Positions 59,485 through 59,971 of a stretch of 64,000 nucleotides of DNA are shown piece after piece. The notes below the pieces were generated by a model. That model made no database searches. It saw nothing but the letters and a program-made list of their open reading frames with translations, and had not been told where the DNA came from. Each line of letters opens with the position of its first letter. The stretch's first letter is position 1. Made by a program: the position numbers and the translations under genes. The stretch is from Escherichia coli (GTDB lineage: Bacteria; Pseudomonadota; Gammaproteobacteria; Enterobacterales; Enterobacteriaceae): assembly GCF_003334305.1 (NCBI RefSeq), contig NZ_QOWS01000018.1. The stretch is one strand, 5' to 3'.

Positions 59485-59654
59485 CAGTAACTTCTAAAAG
59501 TTCTTATTTTTCAATGAGTTGTAATCACCCATATATAGAGAACTGACAAGTCTCTTCACAATTAACTCTGTAACCTTAACAGTGATTTCTAAAAATGCTT
59601 ATTTTTCAATAAGTTGTAATTAGCCATATATAGAGAACTGACAAGTCTCTTCAC
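59485..59654. repeat. Two about 75-bp direct repeats (about 90 percent identical), each ending in TATATAGAGAACTGACAAGTCTCTTCAC
   Basis: Copy 1 at 59485-59559, copy 2 at 59580-59654; noncoding. Confidence 0.7.
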
Positions 59655-59971
59655 GGAGAACTTCCTGGACTCACTAAGATACAAGGCGATAACCCCAGAA
59701 AGGGAGAGCCACCTTCTAATTGGTATTGTTATGAGGATGCTTCATCCGAATCATCTACCAATCCCTAAACCGACTTCTTAAACAATCTTTACAGACCCCG
59801 TTCACCAGTCTCAATATTTTTATTTCTCGCTCTTCGTTTGTTGCTCGTTTCTATTATTGAGGGGGTTTGAAAAACCTCTGTAAAATAACCCTTCCAGTAA
59901 AAAGCGAATAACCCCAGAGAGGGGGAATCGCCTCTTTAACATTCTCATAATCAGTGCTCTATATGAGAATT

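Follow-up and report, generated by a model that had tools for sequence, protein, structure and literature searches.

What do the two tandem repeats do that lie at 59484-59654 of a 64-kb window of Escherichia coli DNA (the whole stretch analyzed here, from contig NZ_QOWS01000018.1; strain name, A7)? A first reading of the letters alone (hereafter, the sequence-only reading) had offered regulator binding sites, iterons, and small RNAs as possible answers. We found that the repeats belong to a 95-bp unit that is conserved in a family of mobile islands related to Felixounaviruses, the virulent Felix-O1-like phages, and that this unit carries no signal of coding or of RNA structure. Our preferred, though tentative, reading is that the units and the block in front of them form a double-stranded-DNA platform for protein binding, most likely the replication origin or cis-replication region of the island.

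A repeat search returned two direct copies of 76 nt, located at 59484-59559 (repeat 1) and 59579-59654 (repeat 2), which are 91% identical, 95 bp apart from start to start, and without any difference in their last 31 nt, CCATATATAGAGAACTGACAAGTCTCTTCAC. When copy 1 was compared with the 64-kb window using BLAST, copy 2 was recovered at E = 1.4e-25 and the rest was noise, indicating that the pair is not a product of chance. Thus, the two direct repeats of ~90% identity that the sequence-only reading had described were borne out, with their 5′ coordinates one base off. With 1.8 copies only, the array was missed by Tandem Repeats Finder. The claim that no open reading frame (ORF) covers the repeats held in substance, although two mechanical ORFs do overlap them: one of 43 aa with a TTG start (59415-59546, + strand) and one of 31 aa (59589-59684, − strand). 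No conserved ORF was found within the 95-bp unit in the alignment of relatives. Furthermore, the period is not a multiple of three, the unit occurs in one to three copies, relatives carry a 1-nt insertion or deletion, and conservation follows no three-base rhythm, indicating that the unit is non-coding.

The unit consists of the 76-nt conserved part and a 19-nt spacer (AATTAACTCTGTAACCTTA, 59560-59578), which separates the two copies and holds the boxes CTCTGTAA and TTAACAG. A further box, CTGACAG, begins at 59481, just 5′ of repeat 1, and likewise belongs to the unit. Boxes of this yTrACAr family were found at 59439, 59481, 59543, 59576, and 59638, all on the + strand. As read from the sequence, each unit carries, after a T-rich run, an IHF-like site (TTTCAATRAGTTG) that agrees with the established IHF consensus WATCAANNNNTTR at 12 of 13 positions; in repeat 1, this site is TTTCAATGAGTTG (59509-59521). 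Each unit also contains a TATATA stretch and a 17-nt quasi-palindrome, GAGAACTGACAAGTCTC. Upstream, a conserved pre-repeat block (59403-59483) comprises a palindrome (TAGCATTTTGTGCTA, 59408-59422), an A-tract, and TTGACAG (59439-59445); no convincing −10 element followed this TTGACAG, and the promoter scan called no promoter there. In two relatives, L027 and L059, a recombination breakpoint lies immediately upstream of CTTGACAG in this block. The repeats and the 80 bp before them thus make up a conserved AT-rich block of ~250 bp (59403-59654), bordered on either side by inward-facing, terminator-like hairpins at 59378-59401 and 59685-59710. The left one (+ strand; CCCCTGT...ATAGGGG, then TGTCTTT) follows a small ORF and was called terminator-like in the relative L010. 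About two-thirds of the bases in the 95-bp units are A or T by reading of the sequence, and the 2-kb stretch 58001-60000 has 40% GC; no distinct unwinding element was distinguishable in it.

We then analyzed the unit in related elements, taking the A7 island as the reference for identity values. The sequence-only reading had named absence or lack of conservation in related elements, together with a lack of transcripts or binding, as the outcome that would speak against it; instead, at least one copy was present in 44/44 relatives examined, and the unit was conserved. Among 22 variants, mean identity to A7 was 0.949 for repeat 1 and 0.925 for the 80-bp pre-block. Third codon positions of three neighboring ORFs showed 0.84, 0.845, and 0.67, and first and second codon positions showed 0.936 for a 93-aa ORF and 0.953 for the small membrane-protein ORF. 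The unit is therefore as conserved as non-synonymous codon positions and more conserved than third positions, indicating that it is under purifying selection. In 31 two-copy variants, columns conserved at ≥90% extended nearly throughout the pre-block, repeat 1, the spacer, and the 5′ two-thirds of repeat 2, while the 3′ end of repeat 2 was less conserved. No other non-coding DNA of this compact mobile island is as conserved as the repeats.

The number of units varied: two copies were found in 31 variants, one in 12, and three in a single variant, L052. One further contig, L050 (the 38th from metagenomes), had zero copies and was rejected as a chance pattern match. In L019, exactly one 95-bp unit was lost. 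There, the protein encoded beside the non-coding region (184 aa in A7) is 67% identical, yet the repeat is ~95% identical; the non-coding DNA being nearly the same despite the diverged flanking protein, the block appears to move as a conserved module. These data bear on whether the array is a neutral duplication without its own function, a view that now seems scarcely credible. Over 22-31 variants at different integration sites, repeat 1 and the spacer show the conservation of non-synonymous sites, and none of the 44 relatives lacks the unit; for the unit itself, the conservation statistics already refute neutrality. Neutrality remains tenable for the second copy, which is dispensable because one-copy relatives exist, and the weaker conservation at the 3′ end of repeat 2 agrees with this.

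Strong nucleotide conservation without coding capacity could also reflect small RNAs, each unit encoding a structured or antisense regulatory RNA; weak promoters inside the units and a hairpin downstream would suit this. However, no Rfam match was obtained, either at the gathering threshold over the whole window or at E ≤ 10 over 58900-61600. Folding z-scores were +0.63 and −0.75, no better than shuffled sequences on either strand. The covariation analysis that the sequence-only reading had proposed as a check gave near-zero covariation on both strands: RNAalifold covariation terms were −0.1 (+ strand) and −1.1 (− strand) kcal/mol, with 1/48 and 2/75 compensatory pairs. Moreover, the terminator scan detected no intrinsic terminator within the array, and neither phage genomes nor other parts of the window showed extended complementarity to the units. 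The units therefore do not show the combination of promoter, terminator, and structure or target complementarity by which a bacterial small RNA gene is recognized, and we judge this explanation quite improbable. Among the earlier suggestions, regulator sites or iterons are thus favored and small RNAs disfavored.

Variation inside the unit was also informative. The quasi-palindrome GAGAACTGACAAGTCTC is exactly inverted in copy 2 of the repeat in L052 and is replaced elsewhere by ACTGTCCAGT, GCTGTCCAGC, or GCTGTTCAGC, which are the forms taken by the variable 3′ palindromic part of repeat 2; its outer bases covary (ACTG..CAGT, GCTG..CAGC). Such inversion and covariation fit a dyad-symmetric binding site. 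The whole hairpin at 59378-59401 is likewise inverted in strain YJ1 (L003), so that two small palindromic segments are exactly inverted between relatives. This suggests template switching mediated by a hairpin or cruciform, or indifference to orientation.

Dyad-symmetric sites raise the question of an operator array, in which the block would bind an island repressor or activator that controls the divergent promoters of the island or its response to infection. The quasi-palindromes that covary or flip are in keeping with this, as is the operator-like palindrome (TCTT)TAGCA-N5-TGCTA(AAGA), which is found before the repeats (59408-59422) and recurs twice upstream of the Dam methylase gene (60678-60695 and 60709-60726); the block also lies ~350-600 bp from the divergent promoters. 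On the other hand, the units are downstream of a terminator-like hairpin and at least 400 bp from the strong promoters, and no helix-turn-helix regulator was recognizable among the island proteins, except for the recombinases and a faint resolvase-type helix-turn-helix (HTH_7) at the C-terminus of the Dam protein. Regulation of this kind by the block is improbable in our estimate.

Next, we asked whether the unit had been taken from a phage. Compared using BLAST with phage records, with the Felixounavirus terminus, and with the whole genome of the Felixounavirus NBEco004, the 95-bp unit showed no similarity beyond shuffled controls, and a plasmid collection gave no match. Judged from these comparisons, the repeats are specific to the island and are not borrowed from the helper phage. 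A derivation from the phage terminus or from phage early promoters was rejected, as the likeness to the “type 2” early promoter modules of NBEco004 seen by eye failed: BLAST scores stayed within those of shuffled controls and profile hidden Markov models of the promoter modules did not match. A T7/T3-type promoter reading of CACTAAG...GGGAGA was also rejected because these motifs do not recur upstream of phage genes.

Constraint at nearly every base, presence in one to three copies, terminator-like flanks, a dyad that flips or covaries, an IHF-like site, and specificity to the island argue for a DNA-level binding platform. On this reading, an island-specific protein would assemble on the block at 59403-59654 together with a host bending protein such as IHF; one to three unit copies would be tolerated, and the block would serve as the origin or cis-replication region of the island, comparable to the crr repeats of P4 or to the non-coding-region repeats of the Vibrio satellite PLE. 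Several close direct repeats, as in iteron origins, are indeed present in the form of the 95-bp unit in one to three copies and its yTrACAr sub-boxes. The P4 crr reportedly consists of two direct repeats of ~120 bp that contain iterons of the alpha protein (Flensburg and Calendar, 1987). One repeat is reported to suffice, and crr acts in cis on replication; its iterons, TGTTCACC, are found at ori as well and serve as binding sites for a known primase-helicase. The A7 block resembles crr in having two long, close direct repeats within a satellite-type element, with shorter boxes inside each. It differs in that the cognate origin and initiator are known for P4, while none was identified in the A7 island, and in that the two share no sequence similarity; P4-like proteins were not found in the A7 island. 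In lambda-type origins, iterons and an AT-rich stretch lie in or beside the initiator gene, and cosB-type sites combine repeated R sites with an IHF site. The A7 block is similar in its AT-rich stretch, in its IHF-like bend site, and in the repetition of putative sites for protein binding; however, unit length and spacing differ, the A7-type repeats lie outside a gene, and no O/P-like or terminase-like proteins were detected.

As a partner, the adjacent 184-aa protein (58389-58943, − strand), which is the first gene product of the leftward operon and belongs to an unassigned family, is a candidate binder of the repeats. Its homologs come from sources whose names include Shigella, E. fergusonii, and Salmonella. 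The genes of distant homologs adjoin kilobase-sized non-coding gaps and carry iteron-like repeats of 24-41 nt inside and beside them. In L021 (10474-10945), a 41-nt unit is present three times directly after the stop codon, with a 27-nt copy inside the gene. Of the four copies of a 27-nt repeat in L068 (4479-5246), two are within the gene and two follow it. In L071 (3513-4383), four copies of a 24-nt repeat span the gene start, and an array of four with a 22-nt period lies upstream. Repeats within the homologs' own genes recall lambda O, and such an arrangement characterizes pairs of initiator and origin, lambda O and its ori among them.

Several observations weigh against an origin role for the block. 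No known domain or fold, and no initiator domain, was recognized in the 184-aa protein. The A7-type repeats are ~540 bp from its gene, with a promoter region and a small ORF between them. Because the protein is 67% but the repeat ~95% identical in L019, the two do not obviously co-evolve. The A7 gene itself contains three copies of AGCTACGAA(nTnCCAA), at 58535-58550, 58794-58806, and 58841-58856, encoding the peptides SYEVPT and SYELPS, and these internal repeats could be the real iterons instead; the 8-mer TTCGTAGC occurs only five times in the 64-kb window. Furthermore, 95 bp is long for an iteron, and each unit carries a weak sigma-70-like promoter (9/12). Owing to the lack of an initiator domain, the lack of obvious co-evolution, the internal AGCTACGAA repeats, and the promoter, operator, and packaging alternatives, our confidence in the origin role is only modest.

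The promoter matches allow for another explanation, in which each unit is a weak rightward sigma-70 promoter (−35 CTGACA/TTAACA, 18-nt spacer, −10 TATTTT) and the duplication doubles transcription into the phage-terminus-like DNA to the right. Such transcription could activate an origin or packaging site or give an RNA of 100-200 nt that ends at the hairpin at 59685-59710. The scan called promoters at 59481-59510 and 59576-59605, both 9/12; the repeat-2 site was called again in L010, both hexamers are invariant among relatives, and the hairpin is 70-170 nt downstream. However, these are weak matches in a region with 8 promoter-like sites, compared with 4.6 ± 2.4 expected by chance, and conservation spans the whole unit rather than the hexamers alone. 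In addition, no + strand gene lies downstream, the + strand form of the hairpin lacks an evident U-run and is less stable than the − strand form, and profile hidden Markov models of phage early promoters do not match the unit. We therefore regard tandem promoters as an unlikely, though not negligible, account of the array.

The hairpin to the right of the repeats is one copy of a second motif, GCGA(A)TAACCCCAGA(A/G)AGGG, which the sequence-only reading had listed as another repeat that might be a binding site. Its two copies are present: the repeat search aligned 59689-59714 with 59908-59933 at 81% over 26 nt. Their character, however, proved to be that of a terminator-like hairpin with a covarying stem, and the motif is separate from and unrelated to the 76-nt repeats. 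Copy 1 (59685-59710, − strand) has an outer stem GGC/GCC, an inner stem CCC/GGG, and the loop CAGAAA, and is followed on the − strand by a weaker U-tract, only UUGUAUCU. Copy 2 (59904-59931, − strand) has an outer stem GCGA/UCGC, with U5 directly after it on the − strand (59903-59899). It begins ~40 nt beyond the stop codon of the Dam gene (59972-59974) and was found only in islands with the Dam cassette. On the − strand, copy 2 thus shows the features of a rho-independent terminator, and its U5 and its position ~40 nt past the Dam stop codon point to a predicted intrinsic terminator of the Dam cassette. Copy 1 would keep leftward transcription that arrives from the side of the small recombinase from reading into the repeats. 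A simple terminator scan missed both copies because the stem has an internal loop.

We collected instances of the second motif from islands and from four Felixounaviruses and folded the 16 distinct variants one by one, as the MAFFT alignment was not structure-aware. All 16 folded alike: an inner stem, CCC(C)/GGG(G), closes a loop of (C)AGARA or GAAA, and an asymmetric internal loop separates it from an outer stem. Complementarity in the outer stem was kept despite differing sequence (GGC/GCC, GCGA/UCGC, GAGC/GCUC, GCCC/GGGC, and GCCA/UGGC), indicating genuine covariation. The − strand form was at least as stable in all 16. The motif is common to islands and Felixounavirus genome-end regions, and in the phages it lies ~200 nt past the last gene facing that region. 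It resembles rho-independent terminators in its GC-rich hairpin and, for copy 2, in the U5 just after the Dam stop codon; it differs from them in the internal loop of its stem and in the weak U-tract of copy 1 and the phage copies. Conservation as a family and the covarying outer stem exceed what a generic terminator needs. Overall, the second motif looks like a predicted transcription terminator or insulator.

The repeats are part of an island of ~11.9 kb (50745-62583) inserted between wrbA and ymdF, the limits being approximately where homology between copies at different sites ends. Its GC content is ~40%, compared with ~52%. Read along the + direction, it encodes a large serine integrase, a Dit-like protein (PF21821), a 722-aa tape measure protein, six small ORFs with no assigned function, a 95-aa HNH_3 protein, and the 184-aa protein. 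These are followed by divergent promoters, a small membrane-protein ORF, the repeats, the Dam cassette, ~0.9 kb more of non-coding, phage-terminus-like DNA, and a small serine recombinase, whose annotated strand is reversed in certain islands (HN68, C311). The divergent sigma-70 promoters (58994-59059) read TTAACA-18-TGgTATAAT rightward (11/12) and TTGACA-17-TAGTAT, with TG, leftward (10/12). The small membrane-protein ORF (59151-59363, + strand) encodes 70 aa, or 62 aa from an ATG at ~59187, with one transmembrane helix, and has a near-consensus extended −10 promoter in front. Because it changes mainly at third codon positions, it is genuinely coding; it is absent from the A7 annotation, and gene callers called it (62 aa) in metagenome contigs.

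The same island architecture was observed at other sites in other strains, beside tonB-yciI and inside yecE (DUF72), giving at least three chromosomal sites. In a BLAST search, the non-coding region matched 435 of 5,426 complete E. coli genomes, of which 89 covered ≥80% of it, often at several places per genome; it was also found in E. albertii and 37 gut-metagenome contigs. The two ends of metagenome contig L010 overlap by 126 nt, implying a circle of 11,015 bp; this is the sole hint of excision, replication, or packaging set off by a helper. Circularity was rejected for the other metagenome contigs of ~11-12 kb, which are integrated copies that break near the island ends. Right of copy 1 of the second motif is a variable cargo site (59768-59971 and 59972-60640; L002, L003, L007, L019), occupied by a Dam methylase in A7, HN68, and L019 and by an AP2/ERF-type protein in YJ1; elsewhere, it has different genes or none.

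Further to the right, at 61143-61340 (+ strand), we noted a candidate small RNA of ~165 nt. The candidate, which is conserved in L010, has a conserved promoter, TTGATG-16-TATAAT (61143-61170), and would end at a strong intrinsic terminator, AGGGACTCTTTCGGGAGTCCTT+TTTAG (61313-61334). The body contains the GGU-rich repeats GGTAGGG, GGTTAGG, and GGTATGG, with a folding z-score of only −1.65. Elsewhere in the window, a cspA thermoregulator (34338-34760; Rfam RF01766, 162.7 bits) and a tRNA-Ser(TGA) (15435-15522) are ordinary chromosomal features unrelated to the repeats.

The relationship of the island to Felixounaviruses was evident in both proteins and non-coding DNA. Its Dit-like protein is ~72% identical to a product encoded beside the tape measure gene in ~250 Felixounaviruses. 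When all island proteins were compared with those of NBEco004, only Dit (72.5%) and the tape measure protein (38-43%) matched. Among the island proteins, no capsid, terminase, polymerase or replisome, or known defense protein was found. In the non-coding DNA, a 51-nt hairpin element, TAATTGGTATTGT[26 nt]TACCAATCCCTA (59717-59767), is 100% identical to NBEco004 DNA, although its presence varies among islands. The NBEco004 record has an exact direct terminal repeat of 628 bp, and the 51-nt element lies inside that repeat. This element, TAATTGGTATTGT[TATGAGGATGCTTCATCCGAATCATC]TACCAATCCCTA, comes in a long (51-nt) and a short (25-nt) form; besides the window, we observed it in L004 (311-361), L005 (3001-3054 and 3762), L006 (9381), and L053. 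In phages NBEco004 and EC106, it stands at different places and in different orientations, apparently with TAA on both flanks. The element therefore behaves like a miniature mobile element common to phages and island.

In NBEco004 and EC106, the genome ends lie in a non-coding region of ~1.7-1.9 kb between convergent gene blocks. It is full of dozens of short, strand-biased boxes (CTGTTAAG, CTTGTTAG, CTCTATAAAG, and CCTTAAAAG), often spaced by ~11 bp; we found no description of the role of these boxes in the literature. Island positions 60641-61541 gave 13 matches of ≥24 bits to the phage terminus, compared with 0.6 in shuffled controls, and 59661-59971 gave 6; 10-mer counts also revealed this likeness. 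Two boxes of the form ATTGTTAATTCTCTGTTAA (TTGTTAA...CTGTTAA), 11 bp apart, were observed at 58964-58981, within the leader of the leftward operon and directly beyond its −10 element; over 18 nt, this pair shares 94% identity with a pair of boxes in the EC106 terminus region. It could be the point where a phage-box-binding protein controls island genes, and the dozens of identical boxes in the terminus of an incoming phage might be a source from which such a protein is recruited, or might titrate it.

Proximity to phage-terminus-like DNA brings up the possibility that the units are packaging signals, that is, cosB- or pac-like sites with an IHF bend that are read by the packaging machinery of the helper or the island. 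An IHF-like site and repeated yTrACAr boxes are present, the units adjoin DNA that resembles the phage terminus, including the 51-nt identity within the phage terminal repeat, and an HNH protein is encoded nearby. The yTrACAr family is also ~4-fold enriched and strand-biased in the Felixounavirus terminus region. This box likeness, with only four independent sites in the repeats, is suggestive at best. Moreover, the 76-nt repeats have no significant similarity to the phage terminus or genome, whereas the DNA at 59661-59971 and 60641-61541 does resemble it; because those regions rather than the units show the resemblance, a helper-recognized signal more likely lies to the right of the repeats. 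No terminase subunit was recognizable in the island. A packaging role of the units is accordingly improbable, and a binding platform with a possible origin function continues to be the reading that we prefer.

By its anatomy, the island looks like a candidate satellite of virulent Felixounaviruses: it has an integrase, no capsid, terminase, or replisome genes were found in it, and it is specifically linked to a helper phage. Our literature search found no description of this island or of satellites of Felix-O1/Ounavirinae phages. Repeat-bearing non-coding regions are of a known kind, being present in other satellites (PLE, P4, SaPIs); the sequence family of the 95-bp unit and its island appear undescribed, and the link to virulent Felix-O1-like phages appears new, as far as we searched. 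The closest parallel in layout is with PLE, a satellite of Vibrio cholerae whose helper phage is ICP1 and in which divergent operons adjoin an extensive non-coding region that contains repeats of several types (Barth et al. 2020, PMC7145576). One of its four repeat families, repeat 3, constitutes the origin iterons bound by the satellite's own initiator, RepA; this is a recognizable RepA_N protein, and both binding and replication were shown by experiment (PMC7145576). The A7 island resembles PLE as a satellite-type island of a virulent myovirus with a large serine recombinase and a kilobase-scale non-coding region with unrelated repeat families. It differs in several respects: no initiator domain is recognizable in the A7 island, the unit is 95 bp in one to three copies, the island has helper-like Dit and tape measure genes and helper-terminus-like DNA, and the two share no sequence similarity.

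A bolder proposal, which we regard as possible but doubtful, is that the island represents a family of satellites, the first of its kind to be described, that parasitize virulent Felix-O1-like phages in E. coli, Shigella, and Salmonella, with the 95-bp block as an infection-responsive origin or switch and the control-region boxes as elements that could sense the helper. If the block were merely a local regulatory site, it would be a well-characterized but ordinary cis-element, and the interest of this element stems mainly from its island; the block nevertheless offers a natural entry point to the replication and induction of the island. If the island is indeed a satellite of virulent Felix-O1-like phages, it would be an enterobacterial counterpart of the PLE-ICP1 system of Vibrio. 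As Felixounaviruses are common therapy and typing phages, this would be relevant to phage therapy and may also inform how satellites hijack lytic phages.

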